Shown here: piece after piece, positions 1,361 to 14,636 of the stretch
Position numbering within the stretch: position 1 is the first letter of the stretch
Layout of the letters: each line of letters begins with the position of its first letter
IMG/VR virus record: IMGVR_UViG_2541047688_000007
Coordinates: 1 to 25,205 of that record
Strand: one strand, 5' to 3'
Length of the DNA stretch: 25,205 bases
Origin: a virus
Taxonomy: Duplodnaviria; Heunggongvirae; Uroviricota; Caudoviricetes
Translations under genes and position numbers: made by a program
Notes under the pieces: model-generated
Told to the model about the DNA's origin: nothing
Databases searched by the model: none
Seen by the model: the letters and a program-made list of their open reading frames with translations, nothing else

Positions 1361-1446
1361 TTTATTCACTTACGTTTCGCCAGTTCGCAGGATTTCGTGT
1401 TATCCGCCCGCGTGGCCATACCTTATTTTTCAGCAAAATATTCTGC

Positions 1447-1980
1447 TTATCTGTCGATTCCCCAGCACGCCAGCGCGCTCTCCTGGTCACGACGGGATAC
1501 CTGACCATAACAGTTATTTGAGCGGATACGGCAGTCTCTGCCACCGTCCTTAATCCACCAGCGAATCGCCTCACACGCTCCCCTGCGATCACCTGCATTA
1601 ATTCGTTTATAAAACGTCGACGGGAAACACTTACCGGGACCAATGTTGTACGGACAGAATGACGCGATCCCCGCTTTCTGGGGTTCACTCAATGGCACTC
1701 TGATGTTTTTCTCCACCCATGCCAGCGCCTTATCACGCTCAATGGCGTTAACCCGGTCGCATTTTTCCTTCGACAACTTCATGCCCGGGACGACAGGTTT
1801 ACTATCCACCAGGATGGCACCGCGGCAGATGGTCCAGATACCCGCGCCATCACGGTATGCCGTGGTGTGGTTACCTTCCTTTTCATCCAGAAACTGGTCG
1901 AGGATTTCAGGCGCAGGCGCACCTGCGGCAATCAGCGCCAGAACGGCAGCCGACAGGCCGTATCTGATTTTTGCGTTCAT
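1447..1980 (-). CDS. R: endolysin, GH24 T4-lysozyme-like muramidase with N-terminal SAR/signal-anchor segment
   Basis: 177-aa ORF; catalytic E-x8-D-x5-T signature (EGNHTTAYRDGAGIWT); Gly/Ala-rich hydrophobic N-terminus (GLSAAVLALIAAGAPAP) as in SAR endolysins that partner with pinholins. Confidence 0.85.
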   Translation of the reverse strand: MNAKIRYGLSAAVLALIAAGAPAPEILDQFLDEKEGNHTTAYRDGAGIWTICRGAILVDSKPVVPGMKLSKEKCDRVNAIERDKALAWVEKNIRVPLSEPQKAGIASFCPYNIGPGKCFPSTFYKRINAGDRRGACEAIRWWIKDGGRDCRIRSNNCYGQVSRRDQESALACWGIDR

Positions 1981-2043
1981 GGATATTTATCAGGATTTAT
2001 CGGTTTCTGCCCACGGACAGGTTTATCTGTTCTGGTCAGTGAC

Positions 2044-2394
2044 TTAAGGTTGTGATTCCGGAGGAGTCTTCAGAGAACCAGTAATTCTTCCTGGTAGCTT
2101 TCCTTTGTAGGTTATCCACACATTCTGCGCCTCTAAAATTACGGGGCGCTTTTCCGGCGACTGCTCATCCCCTTCACATAACCCGGCAGCAACATCCAGG
2201 AAGACCTGTCTGATGCTCCTTCTGGCTGCTGCCTCATAAAACCCCAGCGCGGCACCTTCAACACGGTCCAGCGAGATGTCCAGGTCAAAAATTTCACCGT
2301 CAAAGCGTTTTTTGTCCCGTAACGCTAAAGTTACCGTAACTTTATTCTCAAAATTGCGGATCCCTTTCACAATCAGTTCATAGTTTTGAATCAT
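2044..2394 (-). CDS. hypothetical soluble protein (116 aa) inserted between holin and endolysin
   Basis: ORF starts 5 nt after the holin stop with GGAGAG SD ~7 nt upstream of ATG 2392-2394; hydrophilic sequence, no TM segment, no recognised motif. Confidence 0.5.
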   Translation of the reverse strand: MIQNYELIVKGIRNFENKVTVTLALRDKKRFDGEIFDLDISLDRVEGAALGFYEAAARRSIRQVFLDVAAGLCEGDEQSPEKRPVILEAQNVWITYKGKLPGRITGSLKTPPESQP

Positions 2395-2398
2395 TGAA

Positions 2399-2614
2399 TT
2401 ACTCTCCCCGCGCAGCCTTACGACGGTCCTCTCTGATTTTGAAATACAGGTTAGTCAGATATGTCAGGAAGCCCAGAACCAGACTCCCCAGTACACCAAT
2501 CGCAGCCCACTGTGACGGACTGACCTGATCAAGCCACTGTAAAAACCAGTAGCCAGCACTGCCTGCGGAGGTGCCGTAGGCAATGCCCGTTGAAATTTTA
2601 TCCATGGATTTCAT
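2399..2614 (-). CDS. S: holin, phage 21 S21-type pinholin (class II, dual-start)
   Basis: 71-aa product [71 protein letters not shown], which I recognise as essentially the phage 21 pinholin; dual-start motif M-K-S-M; strong GGAGGTGA SD; track ORF 2399..2713 over-extends upstream. Confidence 0.85.
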
Positions 2615-2751
2615 AGCCTCACCTCCGCAGCGAACGGATGGCGTAGTTATAAGGGGAGCGAAAAAGAAAGAATGCGCGATTGCGCAATATGGTAACGTCA
2701 GGGTATTATCCACTGGCTGAATAGATCACTTCACGTTTTTTGTTCCTTGCC

Positions 2752-2779
2752 GCCCGTATCCATATGCGGGCTTTTTTTT
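2752..2779 (+). terminator. rho-independent terminator-like hairpin, plus-strand oriented
   Basis: 8-bp stem GCCCGTAT/ATATGCGGGC (one G-U) with 4-nt loop, followed by T8 (2772-2779). Confidence 0.35.
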
Positions 2780-2785
2780 GCATGT

Positions 2786-2815
2786 AAAAAGGCCCCAACA
2801 CATGTGCGTGGGGCC
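2786..2815 (-). terminator. rho-independent terminator-like hairpin upstream of the lysis cassette
   Basis: Minus-strand GGCCCCA...TGGGGCC 7-bp stem with 11-nt loop followed by TTTTT (plus-strand A-run 2786-2790). Confidence 0.4.
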
Positions 2816-3015
2816 TGAGAGTATACATGGTTTCAGTCAACTGCATGGTGCCGGGTGCCTCCCGGTGAATTCAGTACCAGCACCTGAATCCGCGATTATC
2901 CCATATACCTACTCGCTGATTGCCCCTCCGCACAGGGGGATTCACCATGCCAGTTTCTTTTAACAAACTCCCCGCAAACCAGACAACAGTCAACCGCCTG
3001 AATTGTGAGACATTT

Positions 3016-3040
3016 AAAAAAAAGCCCGCAAAAGCGAGCC
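3016..3040 (-). terminator. rho-independent terminator immediately downstream of the tRNA cluster
   Basis: Minus-strand GCTCGC-TTTT-GCGGGC hairpin followed by T8 (plus-strand A-run 3016-3023), 15 nt after the tRNA-Arg(UCU) 3' end. Confidence 0.45.
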
Positions 3041-3054
3041 AGGGAAAATAAGTG

Positions 3055-3131
3055 TGGCGCGTTGTACTGGATTCGAACCAGTGACCGATTGCTTAGAAGG
3101 CAATTGCTCTGTCCGGCTGAGCTAACAACGC
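3055..3131 (-). tRNA. argO: tRNA-Arg (anticodon UCU)
   Basis: Hand-folded cloverleaf on minus strand: 7-bp acceptor GCGTTGT/ACAACGC, D-arm GCTC...GAGC, anticodon arm ATTGC-CTTCTAA-GCAAT (UCU), T-arm ACTGG-TTCGAAT-CCAGT, encoded CCA; symbol by analogy with the ileZ-argN-argO cluster of Stx/lambdoid phages. Confidence 0.8.
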
Positions 3132-3144
3132 AGGATACAGATAA

Positions 3145-3221
3145 TGGACCGCCTTCGGGGACCCGAACTCCGCGCAACCAGCTTCGAAGGCTGGCGCTCT
3201 TTCCTGATGAGCTAATGGCGG
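3145..3221 (-). tRNA. argN: tRNA-Arg (anticodon UCG), possibly degenerate
   Basis: Minus-strand cloverleaf with anticodon arm CCAGC-CTTCGAA-GCTGG (UCG) and encoded CCA, but one A-A mismatch in the acceptor stem and one A-C mismatch in the T-stem, G at T-loop position 58. Confidence 0.55.
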
Positions 3222-3228
3222 TATGTGA

Positions 3229-3304
3229 TGGTGGCCCTTGCTGGATTTGAACCAGCGACCTGGCGATTATGAGTCGCTCGCTCTCACCACTGAGCTAAAG
3301 GGCC
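3229..3304 (-). tRNA. ileZ: tRNA-Ile2 (anticodon CAU, lysidine-type; formally Met-like anticodon)
   Basis: Minus-strand cloverleaf GGCCCTT...AAGGGCC acceptor, anticodon loop CTCATAA (CAU), T-arm GCTGG-TTCAAAT-CCAGC, encoded CCA; very similar by eye to E. coli ileX-type tRNA. Confidence 0.8.
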
Positions 3305-3353
3305 GGGAGCAGAATAATAATGGTGCGTAATTAATTCTGCAATCTCATCCGTT

Positions 3354-4403
3354 TCAAACGATTAAATCCTGAACTTCCCTGACTGTCTGCTCAAAACGTC
3401 CGGTCTCCAGTTCAACGCCAATCGCACGACGCCCGAGCGCCAGTGCCGCTTTTACCGTTGAACCTGAGCCCATAAAAAAATCTGCAACCAGGTCACCCGG
3501 ACGACTGCTTGCGCTGATTATCTGCTGCAGCATTTCTGCCGGTTTTTCGCACGGATGTTTCCCGGGATAGAACTGCACCGGTTTATGTGTCCATACATCC
3601 GTGTACGGCACCTGCGCCGTCACACCAAAATACCGCCGCAGATGCTTATATTCACTCTGCAGCTCCACATACTGCCGGTTCAGTGACGTATACGTATCCA
3701 CCAGCTGGTGGTGGGGCTTTTCCAGTTCACCGCGCTGATGTTTCTCTTCTGCCACCCGGGCAAACAGCGACTGTAATTTCAGATAATCGCTTTCGTTCGG
3801 TAGCTGCCACTGACTGGCACTGAACCAGTGCGACACCATGTTTTTCTTTCCTGTGACATCTGCAATCTGTTTTGCCGTTATCCCCAGGGCCGCGCGCGCA
3901 TCACGAAAGTAAGAAATCAGCGGGGCCATCACATGCTGTTTCAGTGCACTGCCCTTCGCCGCATACCCGGCATCTTTCGGACGATACGGCCCCTGATAAT
4001 GTTCCGCGAACAGAATGCGCTCTGTGGCGGGGAAATACGCCCGCAGGCTTTCCTTGTTGCATCCGTTCCAGCGTCCGGACGGCTTCGCCCAGATAATATG
4101 GTTCAGCACACTGAAGCGTTCACGCATCATGATTTCGATATCAGATGCCAGGCGATGACCACAGAACAGGTAAAGACTTCCGGCAGGTTTCAGCACCCGC
4201 CAGAACTGCGCCAGACACTGGTCCAGCCACTTCAGGTAATCATCGTCGCCCTTCCACTGGTTATCCCAGCCCTCAGGCTTCACTTTAAAGTACGGCGGGT
4301 CCGTGACTATCAGGTCAACAGAATTTTCGGGTAACGACCGGATAAATTCCAGGCAGTCGGCGTTGATTAACTCACAACTGGATATTTTTACAGTATTAAG
4401 CAT
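3354..4403 (-). CDS. DNA amino-methyltransferase (N6-adenine or N4-cytosine), beta-class
   Basis: 349-aa ORF with catalytic DPPY motif near N-terminus (LIVTDPPYF) and AdoMet-binding FxGxG motif near C-terminus (DFFMGSGST). Confidence 0.85.
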   Translation of the reverse strand: MLNTVKISSCELINADCLEFIRSLPENSVDLIVTDPPYFKVKPEGWDNQWKGDDDYLKWLDQCLAQFWRVLKPAGSLYLFCGHRLASDIEIMMRERFSVLNHIIWAKPSGRWNGCNKESLRAYFPATERILFAEHYQGPYRPKDAGYAAKGSALKQHVMAPLISYFRDARAALGITAKQIADVTGKKNMVSHWFSASQWQLPNESDYLKLQSLFARVAEEKHQRGELEKPHHQLVDTYTSLNRQYVELQSEYKHLRRYFGVTAQVPYTDVWTHKPVQFYPGKHPCEKPAEMLQQIISASSRPGDLVADFFMGSGSTVKAALALGRRAIGVELETGRFEQTVREVQDLIV

Positions 4404-4540
4404 GGATCATTAAGCCTGTCTCTGATAGGCTCATTCTGCTTTTGCGCAAAGCAGTGGGCCTGAGGTTTGCTTGTGAACCCAACGCATGAGCAGATGGCTG
4501 GTGGGTGCCCCTAACACCCACCAGCCGCCCATTTACCACA

Positions 4541-4567
4541 AATAAAAAAGCCTTCACTGCGGAAGGC
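4541..4567 (-). terminator. rho-independent terminator after small wHTH gene
   Basis: Minus-strand GCCTTC-CGCAGT-GAAGGC hairpin followed by TTTTTTATTT; hairpin overlaps the stop codon at 4554-4556. Confidence 0.45.
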
Positions 4568-4751
4568 GTCTGTAACAACCGAACTGATAGTCTGCCAGAC
4601 CCGCCATAACCAGCTGGGTCAGTATTAACTGGCAGCGTTCGCGTGAAAGGTAAGTATTCTGCGCTATCTCCCCGACTGTCGCCGGTTCGGTAACGCTTAA
4701 TTCATTAAACACTACTCTGGCGGTTTCTGTCATATCCTGCTGTTTTAGCAT
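4554..4751 (-). CDS. small winged-helix/HTH-like DNA-binding protein (65 aa), hypothetical regulator
   Basis: Internal ATG at 4749-4751 with AAGGGA SD; MLKQQDMTETARVVFNELSVTEPATVGEIAQNTYLSRERCQLILTQLVMAGLADYQFGCYRRLPQ has an HTH-like core; the 144-aa track form has a low-quality N-terminal extension running through a terminator and the neighbouring promoter. Confidence 0.45.
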   Translation of the reverse strand: MLKQQDMTETARVVFNELSVTEPATVGEIAQNTYLSRERCQLILTQLVMAGLADYQFGCYRRLPQ

Positions 4752-4874
4752 GTCTTTTTCCCTTTTCCGGTTAACGTGACACACCAATAACTCTTGTCGA
4801 AAAAGCCAGCAAGCTGAAAGACAGGTATTCGCAACCACCAGCACGTTTAACGTACTGCGCCGTTTTTCGGACAC

Positions 4875-4895
4875 AAAAAACCGCCTGGCGGCGGG
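4875..4895 (-). terminator. rho-independent terminator-like hairpin (minus strand)
   Basis: Minus-strand CCGCC-GCCA-GGCGG hairpin followed by TTTTTT (plus-strand A6 at 4875-4880). Confidence 0.35.
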
Positions 4896-4943
4896 TTTAA
4901 GCTGTGTGGCGTAGTAACCACTCTTAACACGATATAATATTTT

Positions 4944-4972
4944 TTGCGTACGCGTTATAGTTTTCTTACAAT
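4944..4972 (+). promoter_or_regulatory. candidate sigma70 promoter for the DUF262-HEPN operon
   Basis: TTGCGT (4944-4949), 17-bp spacer, TACAAT (4967-4972), about 30 nt upstream of the AAAGGAAC SD and ATG at 5005. Confidence 0.45.
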
Positions 4973-5004
4973 CTATTTCCAACTCCAATTAAAGGAACAG
5001 TGAT

Positions 5005-6162
5005 ATGACCACACTCAAAGAACTCAAAGAAGAGCTTGCTCAGATTCAAGATGAAAACGCGAAAAATAGAAAAAAAGCTGAAATTGCAGCCTTGGTCACT
5101 TCTGCCGACAACGAGATTAGGCTTGCTCAGAGAAATATTGGATACAACGTACGTGAATGGACCGTTGAATTAATTGTACAAAAGTATGGCAATAATCTTG
5201 AAACTGACAAAAACGAACTTTTTATTCCTGATTATCAACGCGATTACAAATGGGATATCAAAACAGCCTCTCGATTCATCGAAAGTATATTATTAGATTT
5301 TCCAATCCCGTACCTCTACATCTCCGACGTATTTAATGAAGATCCTGAGTTGGATGGTCGTGTAGAAATTATTGACGGTTCACAAAGGATTCGCTCAATT
5401 TACTACTTTTGGAACAATCAGTTTGAATTGAAAGACTTAAAAGAACTCAAAAGTTTAGAGGGCTTCAAATTTTCAGATCTTTTGGCTAGCCGCCAGAGGC
5501 GATTTTTAAGGGCATCACTAAGATTTATTGAATTGAAAGGTGATGTTGAGGAGCAGCATAGAAGAGATTTATTCGAAAGAATAAATTCAGGTGTTAAGAG
5601 ACTGGAAGCGATGGAGGTTAGACATGGTTCAGATGCGGCCACTTCAATTTTCTATAGGGATGTTGTGACTCCTTGCTCAACAAATCCACTTTTCGCTAGT
5701 CTAGCTCCATTATCAGATCGGAAACGTTCGAATGGCGATCATCGTGAGTTAGTTTTGAGATTTTTTGCATACTTAAATGATTTAGAAAATTATAAGGGTT
5801 ATGTCGCTCCTTTTATTGACAATTATCTTAATGTTCAGGCCGAAAGGGTCACACAACAAGATGTAGACAAATTTAAACATGATTTTGAAAGCATGCTTGC
5901 TTTTGTAGATGCTCATTTCCCTATGGGGTTTAAAAAGACACCAACAAGCAAAACCACCCCCCGTGCTAGATACGAAGCCATAGCAGTGGGAACTGCTCTT
6001 GCCTTAAAAGCCAATCCACATCTACAGGCTCCGGTTATTCCTGTAGGAGACTGGCTGTTTGGGGAGGAATTTGAAACCATAGTTACTGCTGATAGTGCCA
6101 ACAACACCAGCCAACTCAAAAACAGAATATTTTATGTCAAAGATAAATTATTAGGAATGTAA
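5005..6162 (+). CDS. DUF262 (ParB/Srx-like) domain protein, GmrS-type N-terminal module without recognisable DUF1524 nuclease domain
   Basis: 385-aa ORF; DUF262 signatures FIPDYQRDYKW and IIDGSQRIRS (DGQQR-type motif); no His-Me finger motif seen in C-terminal half; AT-rich codon usage. Confidence 0.75.
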   Translation: MTTLKELKEELAQIQDENAKNRKKAEIAALVTSADNEIRLAQRNIGYNVREWTVELIVQKYGNNLETDKNELFIPDYQRDYKWDIKTASRFIESILLDFPIPYLYISDVFNEDPELDGRVEIIDGSQRIRSIYYFWNNQFELKDLKELKSLEGFKFSDLLASRQRRFLRASLRFIELKGDVEEQHRRDLFERINSGVKRLEAMEVRHGSDAATSIFYRDVVTPCSTNPLFASLAPLSDRKRSNGDHRELVLRFFAYLNDLENYKGYVAPFIDNYLNVQAERVTQQDVDKFKHDFESMLAFVDAHFPMGFKKTPTSKTTPRARYEAIAVGTALALKANPHLQAPVIPVGDWLFGEEFETIVTADSANNTSQLKNRIFYVKDKLLGM

Positions 6163-6164
6163 CT

Positions 6165-6854
6165 ATGAGTTTGATTGATTTAAGAGATGAATACGAAGAA
6201 AGAGCAAGAGATATTATGGAATTGCTTTCTCTTGCGTCATCTTTAGAGGCTCAGACTCAGCAGTTAGATCAGCAAACGCATAAAGATGAAATAGAATCAA
6301 ATACCCTTAGGGTTAACATTTTAAAATCATCCGTGCACATGATGCTGTACAATCAGGTTGAAAACACTGCCAGAGGATGCATTGAGTCAATTTATGACCA
6401 TTTGCAAGATAATGAAGTAAATTACGCATCACTCAGGGAGAAATTCCAAGTAAATATCTTGCACCGTATCATTTCAGATAATGAATCGGGAAAATCTCTT
6501 TATCAAAAAATTGGTTCCGATATATCTAAAAGGATCATTTCAGCCTCATTAAACATACGTAAAGAATTCAATGGTAATGTTTGCAAGTCTGTATTGCACA
6601 AAATAACACAAGCTTACGGAATAACTGTTGCAAACTCACCAGAGTGTAGAAATGGTGTTGACTTAGATTTACTTAAAGATATCAGAAATGAGCTGGCACA
6701 TGGAAGTACCAGCTTTTCTAAAAAAGGTCAAATAGACCCTTTAGAAGAAGTCAAATCGAGGTCAGAAAGAATTGATCTATATTTGCGTTTATTAATCAAC
6801 TCAACAGAAAATTATATTACCTCTAACGGGTATTTATCCCCTCAACATGTCTGA
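6165..6854 (+). CDS. HEPN-like domain protein (putative RNase/abortive-infection effector)
   Basis: 229-aa ORF starting 2 nt after the DUF262 stop; C-terminal R-x4-H-G motif DIRNELAHG (residues ~174-180) typical of HEPN superfamily; assignment from motif only. Confidence 0.6.
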   Translation: MSLIDLRDEYEERARDIMELLSLASSLEAQTQQLDQQTHKDEIESNTLRVNILKSSVHMMLYNQVENTARGCIESIYDHLQDNEVNYASLREKFQVNILHRIISDNESGKSLYQKIGSDISKRIISASLNIRKEFNGNVCKSVLHKITQAYGITVANSPECRNGVDLDLLKDIRNELAHGSTSFSKKGQIDPLEEVKSRSERIDLYLRLLINSTENYITSNGYLSPQHV

Positions 6855-7863
6855 TAAATGTTTCCCCTATTATCTGACCAATTATAGGGGGAACAGCATT
6901 TCCAATCATTGTCCCCAATTTTTGGAATGAAAAAGGCGTCTCCTTGTCAAGGAATTTATAATCCATTGGAAAGGATTGCAAAATCGCAGCTTCACGCAAA
7001 GTTATGGCGCGATTTTGCTCAGGATGGCCAAATCGTCCATTTCCATATCCATAACACTGGGTAGTTATCGTAGGGCTAGTATCGTCCCAAACCATCCGTC
7101 CATAAACGCTTTTATAGGTAGCACCTGAATTCTTTTTATGACAGTCTGCTCTAATTTCTTCAGGCCAGTCATCCCACGTACCACCAGGTAAAGAATGCAT
7201 GATTCGTTTAAGATTGATATCCATCAATTTAGGCGAACGATGCAAGGGATCGCTTTCCAGCTTCTCACCTGCCCCTACTTTTGGCAACCTACCAATAGCA
7301 TCCTTAACAGTAACTTTACGGCTAACTTTTTTTTGATCAAGGCTGATCGGCCCCAATTGGGAACCAATTAGAATTAATCTACGTCTATTTTGAGGTAAGC
7401 CATACTCAGAACATCTTACAACGTCGTACCACAAATGATATCCAAGAGTCTTTAATGCACTAACAAACCCTTCAAAAACCTTATGGTTTCTAAGTTGAGG
7501 AACATTCTCCATCGTCACAAGCTCTGGCATTACATCACTTACAAGCCTTTGAAACTCATATAACAAACGCCACTTTGTATCGTCTTTACGGCTATTTGGA
7601 TTACGATACTTGGAAAACGGTTGGCAAGGAGCACATCCAGCAAGCAATCTAATATTTCCTTCCTTGAACATAGCAGACACATCGCAGGATTGCAGTTCTG
7701 TAACTGACTGATTAATGAACTGCGTTAAAGGATTATTGCTCTCAATAGCAAAACGGCAGGATTCATCAATATCAATACCATGAGAAACCTCAATCCCGGC
7801 TTTTTTTAGCCCAAAAGTTAAGCCCCCCGCACCACAAAAAATGTCTACTGCCTGAATGTTCAC
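6823..7863 (-). CDS. DNA (cytosine-5)-methyltransferase
   Basis: 346-aa ORF with C5-MTase motifs I (FCGAGG), IV (GCAPCQPFS, catalytic Cys), VI (ENV), QRRR and GNAV; GTG start at 7861-7863 with GGAG SD; 3' end overlaps HEPN gene by 32 bp (convergent). Confidence 0.9.
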   Translation of the reverse strand: MNIQAVDIFCGAGGLTFGLKKAGIEVSHGIDIDESCRFAIESNNPLTQFINQSVTELQSCDVSAMFKEGNIRLLAGCAPCQPFSKYRNPNSRKDDTKWRLLYEFQRLVSDVMPELVTMENVPQLRNHKVFEGFVSALKTLGYHLWYDVVRCSEYGLPQNRRRLILIGSQLGPISLDQKKVSRKVTVKDAIGRLPKVGAGEKLESDPLHRSPKLMDINLKRIMHSLPGGTWDDWPEEIRADCHKKNSGATYKSVYGRMVWDDTSPTITTQCYGYGNGRFGHPEQNRAITLREAAILQSFPMDYKFLDKETPFSFQKLGTMIGNAVPPIIGQIIGETFIRHVEGINTR

Positions 7864-7926
7864 AAGATTCTCCGTTACTTTATCCTGGTATTATATACAC
7901 ATAAAAGTTGGGAAAGTAGAACGATT

Positions 7927-8295
7927 TTACATAGAACTTAAGTCATTGTAGTAAATGAAAAATGACAAGCAGCCATCAATAAACCCCATTGCTGTTTGCA
8001 TCTCTTTCCGTATTGTTCCATCTGAACATTTCCGTTTTTTAGCAATAGCGCGTAATGAGATACCAATAACAAAGTGAGCAATGATCAACTCATACTCTTC
8101 GGGTTTATACTTTCGCAACCGAGCCACACAACCGTCTATCATGATACCTTCGTCATCATCACACTGGAGACGTGACTTTTTACCGTGTGGTAAAAGCCCC
8201 TTGAAGCCTGCTGCTATCGGCTGCCAGTCCACACCACTGTTATCTGCTGCAGCCCAGGCCCCCCAACGATCTAAAACTTCGTACATATCACGCAT
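7927..8295 (-). CDS. Q: late-gene antiterminator Q (phage 82/QuuD-like family)
   Basis: 122-aa ORF MRDMYEVLDRWGAWAAADNSGVDWQPIAAGFKGL... with Cys-rich zinc-binding-like region; resembles the small Q proteins of phage 82 and the DLP12 prophage as I recall them; last gene of the coupled early operon. Confidence 0.7.
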   Translation of the reverse strand: MRDMYEVLDRWGAWAAADNSGVDWQPIAAGFKGLLPHGKKSRLQCDDDEGIMIDGCVARLRKYKPEEYELIIAHFVIGISLRAIAKKRKCSDGTIRKEMQTAMGFIDGCLSFFIYYNDLSSM

Positions 8296-8552
8296 CAGCG
8301 CAGTACCTCCTGCACCAGTTTTTCAAACTTACCAACTCTGGTTTCCAGCTCTGCCACACAATCCACCAGCTCATCCACTGCTTTTTGTGCACGGTGTTTT
8401 GCCTGCATCAGTTCCCTGAGCGCTGGCACCATATCCCGACGAATGGCATCTTTTGTTACACCTGTTTTTTCCAGTTGTTCCGCCTGCCGCAACATTTCCT
8501 GTGCCTGTTTACGTAATTGCTCAGGGGTAAAAGTCATTGTCTGGTTGTTCAA
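8295..8552 (-). CDS. hypothetical coiled-coil protein (~80-85 aa)
   Basis: ORF overlapping the DnaB stop (TTG at 8550-8552 or ATG at 8535-8537) and the Q start (ATGA); charged helical sequence, no recognised motif. Confidence 0.45.
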   Translation of the reverse strand: MNNQTMTFTPEQLRKQAQEMLRQAEQLEKTGVTKDAIRRDMVPALRELMQAKHRAQKAVDELVDCVAELETRVGKFEKLVQEVLR

Positions 8553-9949
8553 AAGAAACGCTCCATCTTACTGCTGTCAGTTCGTTTGTTGCTGTATCTG
8601 CGCGGCTGGGGCTGTTGCATTGGGGTGGAAAGAACCTGTGCGCTTTCCTGATCCACAGGCAGAAAATGTCCGTTATAAAAACGCCGATAAATCGTCCCCA
8701 GAGAACCGTTACGTTGTTTCGTGATATTGATTTCTGCGATGCCCCTGGCCTGCGTATCCGGGTTGTACACTTCATCCCTGTAAAGCATCAGAATGATGTC
8801 TGCATCCGCCTCTATTTCTCCGGAATTTTTCAGGTCTGAGTTCATGGGGCGTTTATTGGGTCTGGACTCCACACCGCGGGAGAGCTGGCTCAGCGCAATC
8901 AACGGAAAACCACCGGATTTTGCCAGGCCTTTAAGCCCCTTTGAGATTTCACCCACGGCAAGGTCATGACGCCCCGTGGTTCGGGTTTTTATCAGCCCGA
9001 GATAATCAACCACCACCAGCGCCGTTTCCGGATGTTTAATCAGGTGATGTTTCGTTGTTGCGCATATCTCATCAATGGTCAGGTTCGCCTGGTCCACCAT
9101 CCAGATATTGCGCCCGGTCATCCGCCCCACTCCTTGTGAGAAACGTGCCCAGTCTTCGTCTTCAAAGTGAGTGACAGATTTCAGGCGTGATACCGGCATT
9201 CCTCCAGCCGCAGATACCATGCGTTCACCAATCTGGATGTTCGCCATTTCCATTGTGAACAGGAGAACGCCGTGCCCCTGTTCAGTCACCTTGTCGATGA
9301 TATCCAGCGCCAGTTCGGTTTTACCCATCGAAGGACGAGCAGCAATAAATACCAGGTCGCCGGGCTCCATGCCGCCTGTTTTTGCGTCCAGTTCATCAAT
9401 ACCGGTCATCAACGTTCTGGATTTCTCCTGTCCCTGATTCCGGCATTCAACACGCTCAACCACCTCCGGAAGCACATCATCAATATGTACCGGCTGAATA
9501 ATGCCCTTTTCCGTCGACAATGAGGCCATCATGTTCTGCGCATCCTTCAGGGCATCTTCAGCTGCTTCACAGGTATGCGCATCACGTAATTTCTGCAACG
9601 CCTCATTCAGCGTTTTTTCTGCATCGCGCAATGCGGCATTGCGCCGCAACGCTGCAACATAGTGCTCCAGTGAAGACTTCACCCAGGTTTTGCGCCCGGT
9701 ATCAGTAATCACCGGGGCAAGTTCCGGCATCTCATTACACAACAGCACAGGGTCAATCACGCCTGAAACACGGGCCTGTCTGCAGATGCCTGTGTAGATA
9801 TCCCTATACGCTCGTACAGAAAAAACGTCCGCAGGTAGTGTGACCAGAATATCCATCACTTCAGGATCTGCCCCACGCAGAAAGAACGCACCGATGACAG
9901 CGCCTTCCAGGTCATCGTTACGCCATGCCGGGGTGTTCTGGCTGGTCAT
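8549..9949 (-). CDS. replicative DNA helicase, DnaB family
   Basis: 466-aa ORF with Walker A (ARPSMGKT), Walker B-like (LVVVDYLGL) and DnaB-type N-terminal domain. Confidence 0.9.
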   Translation of the reverse strand: MTSQNTPAWRNDDLEGAVIGAFFLRGADPEVMDILVTLPADVFSVRAYRDIYTGICRQARVSGVIDPVLLCNEMPELAPVITDTGRKTWVKSSLEHYVAALRRNAALRDAEKTLNEALQKLRDAHTCEAAEDALKDAQNMMASLSTEKGIIQPVHIDDVLPEVVERVECRNQGQEKSRTLMTGIDELDAKTGGMEPGDLVFIAARPSMGKTELALDIIDKVTEQGHGVLLFTMEMANIQIGERMVSAAGGMPVSRLKSVTHFEDEDWARFSQGVGRMTGRNIWMVDQANLTIDEICATTKHHLIKHPETALVVVDYLGLIKTRTTGRHDLAVGEISKGLKGLAKSGGFPLIALSQLSRGVESRPNKRPMNSDLKNSGEIEADADIILMLYRDEVYNPDTQARGIAEINITKQRNGSLGTIYRRFYNGHFLPVDQESAQVLSTPMQQPQPRRYSNKRTDSSKMERFF

Positions 9950-10854
9950 GCGGCAACACCTCCGATACGAGAACGGTAGCTGGGCCAGTTAAACGACAAC
10001 CAGTTGCGCCCGCCATCGGTGATTCTGTCGGCAATCCGGGGACTGATGAACGCCCACAATTCTTCCGGTGAAAGGTTGCTGATCAGGATAGTTGGCAAAA
10101 TACCCTCATACCGGGCATTGATAATTTCCTGCAAAATGGCCATTTCAGCCGCACTGCCAAACTGAACGCCGACTTCGTCGACAATCAGCAAATCCAGTGA
10201 CGCATAATGCTCAATGACGTCATCCGCTGTTTTTTCACTGTCATTCCGCCAGCAGTTTTTCACAGCCCGGGTAAGGCGCATCACGTCGGTGATCTCCACA
10301 CTGGCCAGATAGTTACGGATGATGTGTTTTGCCATTGATACCGCCAGATGATTTTTCCCGGTACCGCAACTGCCGGTCATAACAAGACTGGTACCGTTCT
10401 CCAGCATATCTGGCCAGTTCTCCGCATAGCGGCGACAGGCCGCAAGATTTCTGGCTGCGTCAGGATTAACCTCCAGATAATTATCAAACTCGCAGTCCCG
10501 AAAACGCAGAGCAATTCCGGCGTTATCAGTCAGTTCTTCCGCCTTGAGGGACGACAGTTCCATGGTCAAATCACTGGCCTCAGCGATCAAGCAGTCAGGG
10601 CAGCATGAAATTTTTTCTCTGTCCTCGCCATTACGATCGATCCACACCAGTATATGCGTACGATATTTACCGTGTTTTTCGCAATATCCGCGACCTTCAC
10701 GCATCAGGCAGGAACGATAAGGCCATGGCTTTTCGCCCTTCTGAGCAAATGCAATCTCTGCCCGTAACTCATCCATTTCTGCCCGTAAATCATCCATTCG
10801 CGCCTGTAGTCTTGTTTGTTTCTCACGTTGGTCAATCGTCATCATCGCTGTCAC
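9946..10854 (-). CDS. DnaC/IstB-like AAA+ helicase loader with N-terminal Cys/His zinc-binding-like region
   Basis: 302-aa ORF; P-loop GSCGTGKNHLA, Walker B LLIVDEVG; N-terminal C-x2-H...CC-x2-C cluster. Confidence 0.8.
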   Translation of the reverse strand: MTAMMTIDQREKQTRLQARMDDLRAEMDELRAEIAFAQKGEKPWPYRSCLMREGRGYCEKHGKYRTHILVWIDRNGEDREKISCCPDCLIAEASDLTMELSSLKAEELTDNAGIALRFRDCEFDNYLEVNPDAARNLAACRRYAENWPDMLENGTSLVMTGSCGTGKNHLAVSMAKHIIRNYLASVEITDVMRLTRAVKNCWRNDSEKTADDVIEHYASLDLLIVDEVGVQFGSAAEMAILQEIINARYEGILPTILISNLSPEELWAFISPRIADRITDGGRNWLSFNWPSYRSRIGGVAA

Positions 10855-10855
10855 C

Positions 10856-11782
10856 TCAGAATGTCAATTTGTTACTGGATTTACCGAATTTGTCAGACAT
10901 GGCTCCCAGGCCAGCCAGGACATCGACCTGTCGCTGTCGCCCACCTCCGTGAGCGGCTGGCTGTTGCCAGTAATCTTCGAAGTGACGATCGGGTCCAAAG
11001 AACGTCGCAGCCTGCTTCACGAACTGTGTGCCGGTATTTCCTGTAGCACGTACCCAGGCGGCATACCGCTTCACGCCATCAAGCATGGTCTCCGGTTTTA
11101 TTCCCTCCCTGATACGGGCTTTCCAGGCTTTGAAGGCTGCAGATTTTGAATTGCCACCAGCACGTTTGGGATATTCCTGCCAGGCCTGTTCAAATTCCGG
11201 TGAATATTCCTGTCTGGCAGAACGCGCTGGTGCAGACGCGTCAGCGGATGCGCCAATATCTTGCGGTTCATGTTTTGAATTTACTGGTGGTTCATGTTTT
11301 AAACCTTGTGGATCTGGAGTCAGATTCTGAAGGGTCAAACGCGTATTTTTGCCAGAATCTGAAGGCTCAAACACGCCTGAACATACAGATTCTGACGGTT
11401 CAGATTTTGAAAGTTCAGAATCTGAAGGGTCACGTAATACTGAAAGTCTGCGCTGCTGTTTCAGTTCTGCAACCTTATCCCGCTCAGTTCTGGCAAGCTG
11501 CTCAAGCCGATCAGCATTCAGATGATAAAGATTGGACGTATTACGGTTACCTTTGCGGCGTGACTGACGCGTCAGCCAGCCATCAGCCTCCAGTTCGGAG
11601 ATTGCCGTTCTGACTGTACTTTCTCCCAATCCAAGCTGTCGACATATGGTTTCAACACCCGGGTAGCACACCCCGTCATCATTCGAATAATCAGCCAGGC
11701 GCGCCATAATCATCAGTTTTGCACCTTTGACGCCATATGCTGCGCATGCATCCCAGACATTACCGAGGATCTTGCTACTCAT
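10856..11782 (-). CDS. replication initiator, O-like (N-terminal HTH domain) containing internal iterons
   Basis: 308-aa ORF with N-terminal winged-helix region (DGVCYPGVETICRQLGLGESTVRTAISELEADGWL); position immediately upstream of DnaC/DnaB-like genes; internal direct repeats consistent with an ori embedded in the gene. Confidence 0.7.
   Translation of the reverse strand: MSSKILGNVWDACAAYGVKGAKLMIMARLADYSNDDGVCYPGVETICRQLGLGESTVRTAISELEADGWLTRQSRRKGNRNTSNLYHLNADRLEQLARTERDKVAELKQQRRLSVLRDPSDSELSKSEPSESVCSGVFEPSDSGKNTRLTLQNLTPDPQGLKHEPPVNSKHEPQDIGASADASAPARSARQEYSPEFEQAWQEYPKRAGGNSKSAAFKAWKARIREGIKPETMLDGVKRYAAWVRATGNTGTQFVKQAATFFGPDRHFEDYWQQPAAHGGGRQRQVDVLAGLGAMSDKFGKSSNKLTF
11266..11435. 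repeat. candidate iteron array / replication origin inside the O-like gene
   Basis: Two copies of GGTTCATGTTTT (11266-11300) followed by 4-5 imperfect direct repeats of CAGA(A/T)TCTGAAGG(G/C)TCA (11319-11433). Confidence 0.5.
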
Positions 11783-12003
11783 ACGACACCTCCCAGACGC
11801 TTAAACATTTTTCCGGACTGAAACGCCACCAGCGGGTAACTCAGGGTATAAGTACGCCCCTGCACCTGGCAGACAACCTTCTGACTTTCTGCATTGACCA
11901 GGCAAACCCGCAGAACGAGGCCGTTGCTGGTGGTAAACCACTGCCCCACTCGGGGGCAACGGTTGTATCGGTGATACAGGGAATTAACGATGTGGCGGAT
12001 CAT
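11779..12003 (-). CDS. hypothetical protein (74 aa)
   Basis: ORF with ATGA overlaps to both neighbours (translational coupling) in early operon; no recognised motif. Confidence 0.4.
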   Translation of the reverse strand: MIRHIVNSLYHRYNRCPRVGQWFTTSNGLVLRVCLVNAESQKVVCQVQGRTYTLSYPLVAFQSGKMFKRLGGVV

Positions 12004-12194
12004 GGACGCACCTCCGCCGTAGTTACGTATTTAACCGGGCTACCTTTCATTGAGATGGTTTCACACATCTCTGCCGCTTTCAGTTCCGCTGTTTTTCTGG
12101 ATTTATAGCGACGGTGCCAGACAGATACATCCGTGCGAACTGATACATCGTTTCTGTATTCCGTAGTGGAGATGATGATTTCGTAACTAATCAT
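12000..12194 (-). CDS. hypothetical protein (64 aa)
   Basis: ORF with ATGA overlaps to both neighbours; no recognised motif. Confidence 0.4.
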   Translation of the reverse strand: MISYEIIISTTEYRNDVSVRTDVSVWHRRYKSRKTAELKAAEMCETISMKGSPVKYVTTAEVRP

Positions 12195-13042
12195 GGGCGA
12201 ACCTCCTTGTCAGAACCATTCAGCCTGGAATCAACAAGTGCAGCGCCAAAAACAGCATCACCAACACGGTCGTACAGTTTGCTAGCCAGCGGAGATTCAA
12301 CGGCCTTAAGCATTGGATAAAGCTGGCTTGTCCAGATTTGATGGATTTCACGCAAATGCAGGTATACGCCTCTGGCGTTTCGTGCGACAGCTGACATATC
12401 AGACGTATCGGCACCTGATAAACTCTTCTCCATCAGGTTAAAGGCGTTGATGTATGCCTCTTTGAACCGGGCAGCACGTTTACCAGTGAAGCCCATGGCA
12501 AGGAACGCGAAGCCATCGCGGGTGATTTGATAGCAAGGTAGTTTGCGGCCTGATGCGTCGGTGTATTCACTTAACACAAAATTGTGTTCAGTAAATTCAG
12601 CGGAACATTCGAGGTTTCTAATTCTATCTAAAACCCGCTCATGCCGTTTAGTAAAGTAATTAGCTACTGCAAGAGATGTGGTGACAACGCGACCATTGAT
12701 AATCGTGATTTCAGGGTGAGATTGGGTTGGGAGAGTAGTCATGGTGACAGCCCCTATGTTGAATTCAATGAACTCACCACCAAGGCTTTCCACGACCATA
12801 TAGGTGGTGAGACGTACAGGGGTGGAAATACCGGTCAACATAGAACCCGGCCCAACCGAAGTTGGCCCTGCACGCCCCACCATAATTTGGGCGTAACGAT
12901 GCTCATGACACGAAAAAACCGCATGAGCGCGGTTGTGCTCTATATTGAATTTCGGGTTTCCACGCCCGGCACCCGCTTTATAAGGTGCAGAGACAGTGTA
13001 ACGTCCCGAAATTGCAGAATCAATATGCTGGTGGCGGATCAT
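12191..13042 (-). CDS. Rha-family phage regulatory protein (paralog 2)
   Basis: Core ITIINGRVVTTSLAVANYFTKRHERVLDRIRNLECSAEF...ITRDGFAFLAMGFTGKRAARFKEAYINAFNLME matches the Rha (Phage_pRha) pattern as I recall it; ~100-aa N-terminal extension whose first residues are shared with the upstream paralog. Confidence 0.7.
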   Translation of the reverse strand: MIRHQHIDSAISGRYTVSAPYKAGAGRGNPKFNIEHNRAHAVFSCHEHRYAQIMVGRAGPTSVGPGSMLTGISTPVRLTTYMVVESLGGEFIEFNIGAVTMTTLPTQSHPEITIINGRVVTTSLAVANYFTKRHERVLDRIRNLECSAEFTEHNFVLSEYTDASGRKLPCYQITRDGFAFLAMGFTGKRAARFKEAYINAFNLMEKSLSGADTSDMSAVARNARGVYLHLREIHQIWTSQLYPMLKAVESPLASKLYDRVGDAVFGAALVDSRLNGSDKEVRP

Positions 13043-13701
13043 AGGTGCACCTCCCGTTGATTACGACGGAACGCGGAGTGACCCTGGACGGTTTCAGCCT
13101 CATGGAATGCTTCAATACAGCTCTCGTAGTACCGCATTGTGCGCAGACTTAACCCAAGCTGAAGCATCATCAGACCATCAAGGGTGATGTAATAACCACG
13201 CAGGGAGTCACCGTAGATGTGATAAGTACCCGGTATGAAATTGCGGGTAAAAAACTCGCGTGAGCAGTTCAGATACTCGATTTTGTCGACGATGTTCTGG
13301 TGCATGCGCTTAAAGTGGCAGGCAACATGCAGGGAGAAAATAACGGCCTTGCCGTTGACAACTTCAATTTTGAGGAATGGGGAAGTTGGGACTGTAGCCA
13401 TGATGGCAGCCTCCGTTGACTGTGGAAAACTTCCACCACCGGAGCTGCGAAACTCACTGGTGGCAGACTGAACAGGGTTCGCAGTACCGGCGTCAACGGA
13501 GACCGGCGAGCCTTTCGGCTCCCCTGCCCAGCCCACCATAATTCTGGCGTGCGTGAGCGCGGACGATAAAAAAGACGCTGGCGCGTCATATATCGCCGTT
13601 GACAATTCCGGGCTGCGACCCCCGGCACCCGCTTTATAAGGTGCAGAGACAGTGTAACGTCCCGAAATTGCAGAATCAATATTTGGTCTTGAAATGATCA
13701 T
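13039..13701 (-). CDS. Rha-family phage regulatory protein (paralog 1, divergent)
   Basis: Core EVVNGKAVIFSLHVACHFKRMHQNIVDKIEYLNCSREF...ITLDGLMMLQLGL resembles the Rha domain; N-terminal DSAISGRYTVSAPYKAGAG shared with the downstream paralog. Confidence 0.6.
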   Translation of the reverse strand: MIISRPNIDSAISGRYTVSAPYKAGAGGRSPELSTAIYDAPASFLSSALTHARIMVGWAGEPKGSPVSVDAGTANPVQSATSEFRSSGGGSFPQSTEAAIMATVPTSPFLKIEVVNGKAVIFSLHVACHFKRMHQNIVDKIEYLNCSREFFTRNFIPGTYHIYGDSLRGYYITLDGLMMLQLGLSLRTMRYYESCIEAFHEAETVQGHSAFRRNQREVHL

Positions 13702-13785
13702 ATAGCTGCTGATATCTTTAGAACTGTTCTTGGATGTTTCGGAGCCGTTTTATGCGAAACAGCTCCCCGTTATTGATGTTGAGTG

Positions 13786-13810
13786 AGCCGGGTTACTCCC
13801 GGCTTTTTTT
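13786..13810 (+). terminator. rho-independent terminator-like hairpin, plus-strand oriented
   Basis: 7-bp stem AGCCGGG/CCCGGCT with 5-nt loop followed by T7; T-run abuts the stop codon of the minus-strand Rha gene. Confidence 0.35.
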
Positions 13811-14517: not shown

Positions 14518-14636
14518 TGCCATCTCCTTACGGATAAATTCTTTTAAGATTCCGCACATTCGTACTTATTGGTGCCGAACCTTCCTTCAGTTATCCTTTT
14601 GATCCCTATAAACAAAAGAACCAAAGGAGGTTCGAC

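Follow-up and report, generated by a model that had tools for sequence, protein, structure and literature searches.

A tRNA and small RNA block ahead of the lysis genes of a lambdoid, Stx-phage-like Escherichia coli prophage without toxin genes

The RNA island and its position in the prophage

Three tRNA genes precede the holin gene in the 25,205-nt stretch of viral DNA analysed here (IMG/VR record IMGVR_UViG_2541047688_000007; the window), in an order known from Stx-converting phages. This raises the question whether the ~440 bp between them and the holin gene are a vacated toxin slot or hold something else. Positions 2615-3342 are very probably an accessory RNA island of lambdoid, Stx-phage-like prophages, lying downstream of the Q-controlled late promoter region and ahead of the lysis genes. 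As such it is a known, ordinary block of tRNAs and small RNAs ahead of the lysis genes of Stx-type E. coli prophages, here without the toxin genes, and the seemingly empty gap of 440 bp contains a known small regulatory RNA gene and no spare DNA (Table 1). Both Q (7927-8295) and the holin gene are encoded on the minus strand, with the tRNA cluster downstream of Q and upstream of the lysis genes. Holin S is the first lysis gene and forms the downstream edge of the island. Scanning for consensus promoters, both near Q and ahead of the methylase gene, turned up no usable candidate for pR'.

Read along the minus strand, the island would consist of four units. The first is a tRNA operon with a pT-like promoter, ileZ(CAU)-argN(UCG)-argO(UCU) and an intrinsic terminator; directly against this terminator follows the second, a putative Hfq-type sRNA gene of the STnc100/EcOnc05 kind with its own terminator. 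The third would be a small unit on the opposite strand, its terminator facing that of the sRNA, and the fourth a further late-strand hairpin, after which holin S begins. The putative promoters and 5' ends were placed from the conservation of hexamers and from published Northern sizes of homologues. With such terminators, the lysogen could make the tRNAs and small RNAs while transcription stops short of the lysis genes; after induction, Q-modified RNA polymerase would be expected, from lambdoid biology, to pass all of them.

Table 1. Features of the RNA island and the adjoining holin gene (window positions; motifs are given 5' to 3' on the strand named)
Feature	Position	Strand	Basis
Candidate tRNA-operon promoter pT; -35 TTGCAG (3342-3337), 17-nt spacer, -10 TATTAT (3319-3314)	3314..3342	-	
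ileZ, tRNA-Ile2 type, anticodon CAU, CCA encoded	3229..3304	-	ARAGORN; Rfam tRNA 72.5 bits
argN, tRNA-Arg(UCG), structurally weakened copy	3145..3221	-	ARAGORN; Rfam 43.4 bits
argO, tRNA-Arg(UCU), reads AGA/AGG	3055..3131	-	ARAGORN; Rfam 70.1 bits; identical to Sakai Sp4 argO1
tRNA-operon intrinsic terminator, GGCTCGC-TTTT-GCGGGC then T8	3016..3040	-	Terminator scan
stx insertion point, unoccupied	3012..3023	-	Alignments and motif-anchored comparison with 933W and Stx2a_1447
STnc100-family sRNA gene, EcOnc05 type	2780..2979	-	Rfam RF02076, 139 bits
Minority variant of the sRNA 3' ~60 nt, presumed seed region and terminator hairpin 2786-2815; window-type sequence AGUUGACUGAAACCAUGUAUACUCUCA	2780-2841	-	
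Convergent small transcription unit, candidate ~64-nt RNA	2680..2779	+	Terminator scan, homology; expression inferred
Parts of the convergent unit: -35 TTGCGC; -10 TATTAT; body	2680-2685; 2704-2709; from ~2716	+	
Terminator of the convergent unit: stem; T8	2752-2771; 2772-2779	+	
Second late-strand terminator-like hairpin, TGCGCAATCGCGCA and T-rich tail	2673..2686	-	Terminator scan
Holin S (P21-type, class II), dual-start MKSMD motif	2399..2614	-	Pfam PF04971, 122 bits; RefSeq 'class II holin family protein'

The tRNA operon

Exactly three tRNA genes, each encoded on the minus strand, are predicted by ARAGORN in the window, and their order and spacing fit the annotations of 933W and Sakai, which bears out the identification of the cluster in the preliminary description as the ileZ-argN-argO of Stx phages. 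The 281-nt tRNA block is 93.6% identical to that of 933W and 95.4% identical to that of Stx2a_1447. The CAT tRNA is labelled Met by ARAGORN, while RefSeq gives tRNA-Ile for the same sequence and the annotations of 933W and Sakai give ileZ, codon AUA; the CAU anticodon of ileZ decodes AUA after lysidine modification. Its Rfam score equals that of the copies in 933W, Stx2a_1447 and Nil3. The cloverleaves of ileZ and argO are canonical, and all three tRNAs are full-length with encoded CCA ends. The Rfam score of argN lies below those of the Stx2-phage copies (54.8-55.9 bits), and comparison with the canonical 933W copy reveals mismatches in the acceptor stem (A6/A67) and the T-stem (A/C) as well as the T-loop change A58G. 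With these three structural defects, which argN1 of Sakai Sp4 has as well, argN may be non-functional.

The candidate promoter pT was read directly from the sequence; the consensus promoter scan did not pick it up, because its -35 matches the consensus at only 3 of 6 positions. Its -10 lies 9 nt ahead of the mature 5' end of ileZ, and the hexamers are conserved in Stx2a_1447, Sp4 and 933W, where they are annotated as 'pT; putative tRNA promoter'. The terminator behind argO is kept in Stx2a_1447, 933W, Nil3 and Sp4, and the annotation of 933W describes the same hairpin as a 'possible rho-independent terminator upstream of the stx genes'.

In a preprint, tRNA matches near Pas sRNAs of prophages were read as marks of integration hotspots (Zhu et al.). 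Applied here, that interpretation would make the tRNAs remnants of a host tRNA integration site, i.e. att-site duplications instead of functional phage genes, and the degraded appearance of argN, which is a pseudogene in an O169 prophage, could be taken in the same sense. We regard this as extremely unlikely. The genes are complete to their CCA ends and have a central position in the prophage, with Q on one side and the holin gene on the other, whereas the prophage end is at yecE by the integrase gene. They are also present in packaged phage genomes (933W, PhiR49_2), promoter and terminator are conserved, ileZ and argO are perfectly conserved, and the codons that they read are enriched in phage genes.

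This enrichment is strongest for AGA and AGG, which together make up 15.2 of every 1000 codons in the prophage genes but 0.8 of every 1000 in five host genes next to the prophage (p = 2e-7, on a host baseline of 1,323 codons). Differences were borderline for AUA (9.0 versus 3.8 per 1000) and for CGA and CGG (18.1 versus 10.6 per 1000), with p about 0.05 in both cases. The counts rest on the gene annotation of strain FAH. Its prophage and the window are 99.5%, not fully, identical over 1442-16691; the window has two extra IS copies and is divergent at 888-1441. Given that the prophage genes favour the codons concerned, above all AGA/AGG, the tRNAs for AUA, AGA/AGG and CGA/CGG would serve the phage with or without a toxin, and they are better seen as phage equipment than as toxin accessories.

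A small RNA gene of the STnc100 family

The interval between the tRNAs and the holin gene had been described as containing only terminator-like hairpins. This is wrong, as 2780-2979 (minus strand) is a full-length match to Rfam STnc100 and 2674-2796 (plus strand) is homologous to the 3' portion of another published Hfq-bound RNA. The match to RF02076 (gathering score 47, E 6e-31) covers model positions 1-206 of 206, with only two non-standard pair positions in the cmscan alignment, and includes the family's closing helix (GCAUGGUG...CACCAUGC) together with its inner hairpins. RNAalifold on 8 homologues gave 38 pairs, 8 of them with compensatory changes, in a long-range helix around the hairpins plus the terminator. 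The three hairpins noted earlier are real, and they are the terminators of the tRNA operon and of the two RNA units, although not the sole content of the interval: the terminator scan finds two of them (minus strand, 3040-3023 with its T-run; plus strand, 2752-2771 with T8), and the one at 2786-2815 corresponds to the terminal stem in the STnc100 model.

By analogy with its homologues, the full transcript would run from ~3005 to ~2786 and measure ~220 nt. From argO through the sRNA 5' domain (the first ~165 nt of the sRNA, conserved to ~2842) the window is identical to Sakai Sp4, save for a 1-nt difference in a T-run. The Sp4 homologue is EcOnc05, which was positive in Hfq-CRAC and ~222 nt long on Northern blots (PMC4104026 Table S2). 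A discrete Hfq-associated RNA has been demonstrated for EcOnc05, EcOnc27 and PasD, and the window copy may behave likewise. Published Northern sizes of ~222 and ~235/247 nt were used to place the 5' end. The -10-like TTAAAT (3017-3012) has no recognisable -35, because the terminator stem of the tRNA operon occupies that position, and the ~220-nt species could thus be a processed read-through product.

PasD (EPEC) / EcOnc13, a relative of STnc100, has the 5' domain in common with the window sRNA, and PasD is Hfq-dependent on Northern blots. Its own promoter, TTGACT-18-TAAAAA, is placed right before GCAUGG, whereas the corresponding spacing in the window is 25 nt. A sigma-70 promoter for the sRNA built on the conserved TTGAC(T/A) was accordingly rejected for its wrong spacing to any -10 (25 nt to TAAAAG). 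Also considered was an extended -10 (TGTTAAAAG) from which, as in PasD, transcription would begin at GCAUGG. This was dropped for the STnc100 type, because the published probe for EcOnc13 maps upstream of GCAUGG and the Northern sizes put the 5' end ~55-75 nt further up. The 3' ends are unrelated, and alignment and motif search found neither the PasD seed (UGUGAG) nor its Northern-probe sequence in the window copy.

Among 5,426 complete E. coli genomes, 97 carry the window's 3' variant, as do 7 of 123 IMG/VR loci, and in all seven of these loci the holin gene follows directly, with no esterase gene. The same empty-junction scaffold carries at least five different 3' ends. It is possible, though we put this forward tentatively and think it less probable than not, that STnc100-family sRNAs are modular regulators, in which a ~165-nt 5' scaffold doubles as a recombination joint and ~60-nt 3' cassettes of seed plus terminator are swapped together with the lysis module, so that the window variant is a distinct regulator. 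If this is true, the variant would act on host targets of its own, and would do so in commensal and extraintestinal strains of E. coli instead of EHEC.

Small open reading frames

The statement that the gap holds no ORF is right only in a loose sense. Five ORFs of 40-61 aa overlap the interval, with no Pfam match for any of the four that were scanned, and annotators called two: a RefSeq pseudo-CDS at 2802-2960 (plus strand) and, in the annotation of PhiR49_2, a 46-aa 'hypothetical protein' (2706-2846, minus strand). That the interval codes for small proteins, with the RNA-family match being incidental, would agree with the presence and annotation of these ORFs and with an EPEC 'hypothetical protein' CDS that is annotated antisense to PasD1. 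Nevertheless, we consider it very unlikely. Besides the negative Pfam scan there is the 139-bit covariance-model match, with paired columns kept by compensatory changes, and the homologues are Hfq-bound RNAs that are visible on Northern blots. The 46-aa ORF moreover covers the variable 3' end of the sRNA and both terminators, a region that is wholly different between relatives. The gap ORFs lie on the RNA genes or antisense to them, and the DNA between tRNAs and holin is best described as a dense series of small RNA genes, which standard annotation overlooks or takes for hypothetical proteins.

The putative convergent unit on the plus strand

On the plus strand, 2674-2796 is 72-74% identical to Nil3, Stx1 phages and Sakai Sp4, with the hexamers and terminator stem conserved and the spacer and loop differing among homologues. 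The published probe sequence of EcOnc08/21/42 maps to the Nil3/Sp4 homologue of this unit. However, homology to EcOnc08/21/42 (Sakai Sp4, Hfq-bound, ~271 nt) is limited to the 3' ~105-120 nt, and the 5' ~165 nt have no counterpart in the window; the unit may be shorter, differently driven or silent in comparison. Convergent sRNAs at the moron site were reported for Sp3, Sp4, Sp5 and other prophages (Tree et al.). The geometry is indeed the same in 933W, where AsxR (3446-3498, plus) faces STnc100 (3500-3705, minus), while in the window the plus-strand terminator ends at 2779 and abuts the end of the STnc100 match at 2780.

An assignment of the plus-strand hairpin to AgvB or AsxR was rejected on the scores of the Rfam models RF02702 and RF02703, which represent the conserved ~42-nt 3' region: the AgvB score, 11.9 bits (E 7.5), is below the gathering score of 56, and AsxR was unlisted even at E up to 10. 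The positional analogy and the homology to EcOnc08 are kept. PasC was likewise set aside, as alignment with the EPEC PasC region revealed no real similarity.

The unoccupied toxin site

As the preliminary description had supposed, the prophage is stx-negative and carries no toxin remnant: across the whole window, tblastn and blastn gave no significant match to the A or B subunit of Stx1 or Stx2 (best E 0.07-0.7). The proposed relation to Stx-phage flanks also holds. Stx2 phages align with the window on both sides of a 1,328-nt cassette (stx2 promoter-stx2A-stx2B) that is missing here, while pT, ileZ-argN-argO and the terminator are in common with 933W / Sp5 (Traversvirus) and Stx2a_1447 (Sawaravirus). 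In 933W and Stx2a_1447 the cassette lies between the terminator T-run and TGTAAT-CTGTGTCACAATTCAG. Its length is identical in these two unrelated phage genera, and in both it is placed exactly between the terminator of the tRNA operon and the RNA gene that comes next. In the proposed layout, stx2AB of Stx2 phages is an add-on exactly between the first and second units. Because a cassette of the same extent sits so precisely between two transcription units in unrelated phages, the tRNA block and the sRNA scaffold are likely the homology arms for the spread of stx2.

The idea of an empty cargo site stands insofar as the toxin site is unoccupied, but there are no ~440 bp of vacant DNA: the site is a zero-length junction at ~3012-3023, where the terminator T-run directly meets the TTAAAT of the sRNA, and the rest consists of the sRNA gene, the convergent unit and terminators. 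Judged by its sequence, the junction of this prophage is the unoccupied form, as in Sp4 of E. coli O157:H7 Sakai. The TTAAAT...CAATTCAG leader is also found ahead of STnc100 in DUF3927-type and Stx1-type prophages.

An unoccupied site could in principle also result from recent loss of stx from a Stx2a phage, by deletion of the cassette, perhaps between flanking ATCTG repeats, that left a scar at ~3012-3023. The prophage is integrated at yecE, a known insertion site for Stx2 phages, with the integrase gene beside it, and a Stx2a phage record among the matches is named 'Stx2_12E129_yecE'. The same history would suit the methylase-tRNA side, which is ~93-94% identical to Stx2a phages, and the 5-nt ATCTG that borders the 1,328-nt cassette on either side in 933W and Stx2a_1447, although so short a repeat, lying within a few bases, can easily arise by chance. 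The junction itself argues otherwise: it reads TTTTTTTTAAATGTCTCAC, while deletion between the Stx2 flanks would give TTTTTTATATCTGTGTCAC, a difference at ~5 of 9 positions. Nearly the same junction is present in 123 IMG/VR loci, where the T-run is 7-9 T long among the variants listed and a few bases are substituted, and in Sakai Sp4 and Nil3. The right flank (sRNA 5' domain) is just 71% identical to the Stx2-linked allele and 100% identical to the stx-free Sp4 allele, and stx remnants are absent. Recent loss is disfavoured by the junction and by the sRNA 5' domain, and we consider it unlikely; most likely, going by the alleles compared, stx was never carried here. An 'empty toxin slot' beside ileZ-argN-argO is the common state in E. 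coli lambdoid prophages and no sign of toxin loss. In such stx-free prophages at yecE, incoming Stx phages find matching flanks with which to recombine.

Occurrence and relatives

The arrangement is common and already described, contrary to the rarity implied before. The same contiguous order is present in 1,011 of 5,426 complete E. coli genomes and in at least 119 IMG/VR contigs, and it occurs in the phages Nil3 and PhiR49_2; an exact-pattern scan with one genome per species gave no match, which speaks for the species representatives only. The same stx-free block is found in Sakai Sp4, as ileZ1-argN1-argO1 followed by EcOnc05 and the convergent EcOnc08/21. There the last ~60 nt of the sRNA (presumed seed and terminator) differ from those of the window, and a nanS-p-type esterase gene is next, whereas in the window the holin gene follows directly. 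Stx2 phages likewise have an esterase gene between sRNA and holin, and their STnc100-family sRNA (EcOnc27 / sRNA103) is the ~71% identical allele; Stx2a_1447 shares in addition the methylase region (~93%). Nil3, a stx-negative phage from O157:H7, has the same empty junction (99.7%) with a Sp4-type sRNA 3' end. PhiR49_2 (ECOR13) is 97.7-100% identical over the tRNA-sRNA-holin block, including the minority 3' variant, but its Q lies just upstream of a truncated methylase gene and the tRNAs, and the ~4.5 kb of methylase/nuclease cargo in the window is missing. Lastly, the second late-strand hairpin, ~60 nt ahead of the holin start, has a homologue in each of 933W, Sp4 and Nil3.

An STnc100-type sRNA gene between the tRNA cluster and the holin

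The 440 bp between the tRNA cluster and the holin had been described as containing only terminator-like hairpins, but an Rfam scan found a full-length gene of the STnc100 sRNA family there (see table). The three hairpins listed are real, two by terminator scan and the third (2786-2815) as the terminal stem of the sRNA. A consensus fold of eight homologues gave 38 pairs, eight with compensatory changes, and reproduced the family structure, in which a long-range helix (GCAUGGUG...CACCAUGC) encloses hairpins and is followed by the terminator.

Features of the window
Feature	Position	Strand	Evidence or remark
tRNA-Ile, CAT anticodon (ileZ)	3229-3304	minus	ARAGORN; Rfam tRNA, 72.5 bits
tRNA-Arg(TCG) (argN)	3145-3221	minus	ARAGORN; Rfam tRNA, 43.4 bits
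tRNA-Arg(TCT) (argO)	3055-3131	minus	ARAGORN; Rfam tRNA, 70.1 bits
tRNA-operon terminator	stem 3040-3023, then T8	minus	terminator scan
STnc100 (RF02076)	2780-2979	minus	Rfam, 139 bits (gathering score 47 bits); model positions 1-206 of 206
Convergent terminator	stem 2752-2771, then T8, to 2779	plus	terminator scan
Late-strand hairpin, T-rich tail	2686-2673	minus	terminator scan; ~60 nt ahead of holin
Holin, P21-type	2399-2614		Pfam, 122 bits
Candidate intrinsic-terminator-like hairpins	4894-4881 and 4567-4550	minus, late strand	flank 65-aa ORF
DUF262/GmrSD_N protein and MAE_28990-type HEPN nuclease	5005-6854	plus	between Q and tRNAs
Cytosine and N6/N4 methyltransferases	6823-7863 and 3354-4403	minus	bracket DUF262/HEPN genes
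Hypothetical protein, partial pseudo	2802-2960	plus	RefSeq; antisense to sRNA
46-aa hypothetical protein	2706-2846	minus	PhiR49_2 record; spans sRNA 3' end and both terminators
C4 antisense RNA and isrK pairs	12800-12988 and 13456-13644	minus	tandem, 656 bp apart
1,257-bp insertions	16692-17939 and 22453-23698		direct orientation

From argO through the tRNA terminator to the first ~165 nt of the sRNA, the window is identical to Sp4, a stx-free prophage of E. coli O157:H7 Sakai, except for one T in the T-run. This is where, in Sp4, Tree et al. located the sRNA EcOnc05, which crosslinks to Hfq and measures ~222 nt on Northern blots (PMC4104026 Table S2). The Stx2-phage allele is EcOnc27, alias sRNA103, which lies 75 nt downstream of stx2B by annotation (PMC12370729) and was placed immediately downstream of stx2B elsewhere (PMC12711010). 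The EPEC relative PasD is Hfq-dependent on Northern blots (PMC8550237), and a 2026 preprint argued for a common origin of PasD and STnc100. Sequence comparison found neither the PasD seed nor its probe sequence in the window copy, which rules out PasD and identifies the sRNA as STnc100 proper.

The hexamer TTAAAT (3017-3012; TGTAAT in Stx2 phages) resembles a -10 element. A promoter there would start transcription 6-8 nt downstream (~3004-3006) and, with a 3' end at the U-run near 2786, yield an RNA of ~220 nt, which agrees with EcOnc05; the same logic predicts ~230 nt for EcOnc27, in agreement with ~235/247 nt. Since no -35 element was recognisable ahead of this hexamer, the ~220-nt sRNA may instead be a processed read-through product.

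The RefSeq and PhiR49_2 protein calls over this region had no Pfam match and are therefore probably annotation artefacts on RNA genes.

The convergent plus-strand unit

The plus-strand terminator stops one base short of the end of the STnc100 match, and the two terminators thus oppose each other. Over 2674-2796 the window shares 72-74% identity with its counterpart in Nil3 (a phage from an O157:H7 strain), Stx1 phages and Sp4. The Sp4 region is that of the Hfq-bound RNAs EcOnc08/21/42, and the published probe maps exactly to the Nil3/Sp4 homologue. Window and Sp4 agree in the terminator stem and in the hexamers TTGCGC and TATTAT, which are 18 nt apart, but not in spacer and loop, a pattern which fits a small transcription unit of ~64 nt (~2716-2779). 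The unit may be expressed in this prophage; the 5' ~165 nt of the ~271-nt RNA in Sp4 have no counterpart here. In the Stx2 phage 933W, the anti-sRNA AsxR holds the matching convergent position, abutting STnc100. Membership of the AgvB/AsxR family was rejected, as AgvB scored 11.9 bits in Rfam against a threshold of 56 and AsxR gave no score.

The stx site is a zero-length junction

Stx2a phages match the window at ~93-94% and carry an extra block with stx2A and stx2B. Homology between the window and the Stx2 phages 933W and Stx2a_1447 covers argO and the terminator GGCTCGCTTTTGCGGGCC-T6, breaks off where the phages enter the stx2 promoter region, and returns at TGTAAT-CTGTGTCACAATTCAG, for which junction alignments give TTAAAT-GTCTCACAATTCAG as the window counterpart. 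The cassette so delimited measures exactly 1,328 nt in each of the two phages, which belong to different genera. In the window, the terminator T-run is directly joined to TTAAAT. The stx site is thus unoccupied, as proposed, but it is a zero-length junction at about 3012-3023 and not a void of 440 bp. Alignment to stx-flanking regions gave homology on both sides of the cassette, and no stx1 or stx2 remnant was found anywhere in the window.

Had the Stx2 cassette been deleted between its flanking ATCTG pentamers, the product would read TTTTTTATATCTGTGTCAC; the window has TTTTTTTTAAATGTCTCAC. The junction is essentially unchanged in 123 loci (119 IMG/VR contigs plus reference loci), apart from T-run length and a few substitutions. 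The leader TTAAAT...C(A/T)CAATTCAG is also found ahead of STnc100 elsewhere, behind a DUF3927 gene in other prophages and behind stx1B in Sp15. The 5' domain of the sRNA matches the allele of stx-free Sp4 at 100% identity and the Stx2-linked allele at only 71%; the tRNA block is 94-95% identical to the Stx2-linked block. Taken together, these comparisons speak against a recent occupation of this allele by stx; probably stx was never there. For the stx2 cassette, the most likely route of movement is homologous recombination in the tRNA and sRNA modules on either side of it.

A small DUF3927-family ORF lies directly upstream of STnc100/PasD in the O169:H41 prophage (L003 2707-2838) and in EPEC E2348/69 PP2, PP4 and PP5 (L006 2562-2720; L007 1459-1617; L008 33-119), in some such prophages behind a 744-nt ORF. 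At least three states of the site thus occur: without cargo, with stx, or with DUF3927-type cargo. The T-run (window 3016-3023; homologous junctions L013-L131) varies from 7 to 9 T, among the variants listed, between otherwise near-identical junctions, probably by replication slippage. A different length would affect the strength of the terminator as well as the distance to the -10-like element of the sRNA.

The prophage lies at yecE. In the stretch from 23699 to 25205 and beyond it (L009 6722-8787), the window runs out within the prophage integrase; in the related E. coli strain FAH, yecE is the insertion site of the prophage. Among the matches listed, one Stx2a phage record is named 'Stx2_12E129_yecE', and yecE is a known insertion site of Stx2 phages. 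With this location and no stx remnant, 'stx-negative relative' is a fair description.

Distribution and the 3' variant of the sRNA

Among 5,426 complete E. coli genomes, 1,011 have argO and STnc100 contiguous; so do at least 119 viral contigs of IMG/VR, Nil3 and the complete temperate phage PhiR49_2. Convergent sRNAs were reported at the 'moron' site of Sp3, Sp4, Sp5, Sp9, Sp10, Sp11, Sp15 and Sp17 (Tree et al., 2014). The arrangement is common, already described in literature and databases, and ordinary; the preliminary description was right about the tRNAs and in substance about an unoccupied stx site, but the interval is not empty. The small additions made here are the exact cassette boundaries with the zero-length junction, a minority sRNA 3' variant linked to an esterase-less lysis module, the apparent decay of argN and the probable mis-annotation of the sRNA region as hypothetical proteins.

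The last ~60 nt of the sRNA are the less common part: the 231-bp segment 2615-2845 was found in 97 of the 5,426 genomes, every match at ≥99% identity. Among the 123 empty-junction loci, the 3' end is of the Sp4 type in 92 (one with a single substitution included), of the window type in seven, and of at least three further types. The window type leads directly to the holin (7/7), the others to an esterase gene. These linked variants place a recombination joint inside the sRNA gene, where the conserved 5' domain ends.

tRNA genes and codon usage

ARAGORN found exactly three tRNA genes in the 25-kb window, and Rfam agreed on this tandem cluster. ARAGORN labelled the CAT tRNA as Met, but the same sequence is tRNA-Ile in RefSeq and ileZ, reading AUA, in the 933W and Sakai records. 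The candidate pT-like promoter, TTGCAG-17-TATTAT, shares its hexamers with the promoter annotated in 933W. Conservation is perfect in ileZ and argO; in line with its weaker CGR codon signal, argN alone looks degraded, with an A/A acceptor-stem mismatch, an A/C T-stem mismatch and A58G in the T-loop relative to the canonical 933W copy. Sp4 argN1 shares these departures, and the O169:H41 prophage retains only a remnant at this position (L003 3415-3518), a clear pseudogene. Selection on argN may thus be relaxed in lineages free of stx.

Codons were counted from the FAH annotation (prophage 99.5% identical over window 1442-16691). The five codons of these tRNAs account for 35-55 of every 1000 codons in the groups of prophage genes and for 15 in the host, a small sample of five flanking genes (1,323 codons). 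Genome-wide, E. coli uses them at roughly 17-18 per 1000, of the same order as this sample. By tRNA, prophage and host values per 1000 were 15.2 and 0.8 for AGA+AGG (argO; p = 2e-7), 9.0 and 3.8 for AUA (ileZ; p = 0.05) and 18.1 and 10.6 for CGA+CGG (argN; p = 0.05). These codons are used most heavily by the lysis genes and by the cargo encoded between Q and the tRNAs (methylase, DUF262 and HEPN genes). The enrichment agrees with the common explanation of phage tRNAs as a supplement for rare codons in phage genes (for example PMC3636060), and since it concerns the prophage's own genes, the cluster would be useful without stx.

Proposed transcription and other features

Genes and their order, terminators, homology to experimentally detected RNAs, cassette boundaries and codon enrichment were observed directly; the regulation proposed here is conditional. 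The tRNA operon would be driven by the pT-like promoter and halted at its own terminator, with the sRNA and the convergent unit transcribed separately in the lysogen. Terminators 3016-3040, 2786-2815 and 2673-2686, the last conserved in 933W, Sp4 and Nil3, would keep lysogenic transcription out of the lysis genes until, after induction, Q-modified polymerase reads through them. The candidate hairpins flanking the 65-aa ORF lie in a region conserved with Stx2a_1447. They might be the tR' region of a late promoter (pR') that inserted cargo has moved ~3 kb away from Q; the sequence near them (intergenic 4895-5004) yielded no convincing promoter.

The DUF262/HEPN and methyltransferase genes are defence-like cargo with the highest AGA/AGG/AUA content in the prophage, and late transcription would cross DUF262/HEPN antisense. 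The C4 antisense RNA (82 and 79 bits) and isrK Hfq-binding RNA (62 and 59 bits) pairs lie in the early/immunity region, beside antirepressor genes of Rha/ash type in the related prophage of FAH, and look like a duplicated P1/Gifsy-type immunity RNA module. Lastly, the two 1,257-bp insertions are 99.8% identical to each other and absent from the FAH prophage, which is otherwise 99.5-99.98% identical. With ends TGAAGTGGT... and ...ACCACTTCA and overlapping ORFs of 112 and 272 aa, they look like an IS3-family element, possibly IS911-like by its inverted repeats.
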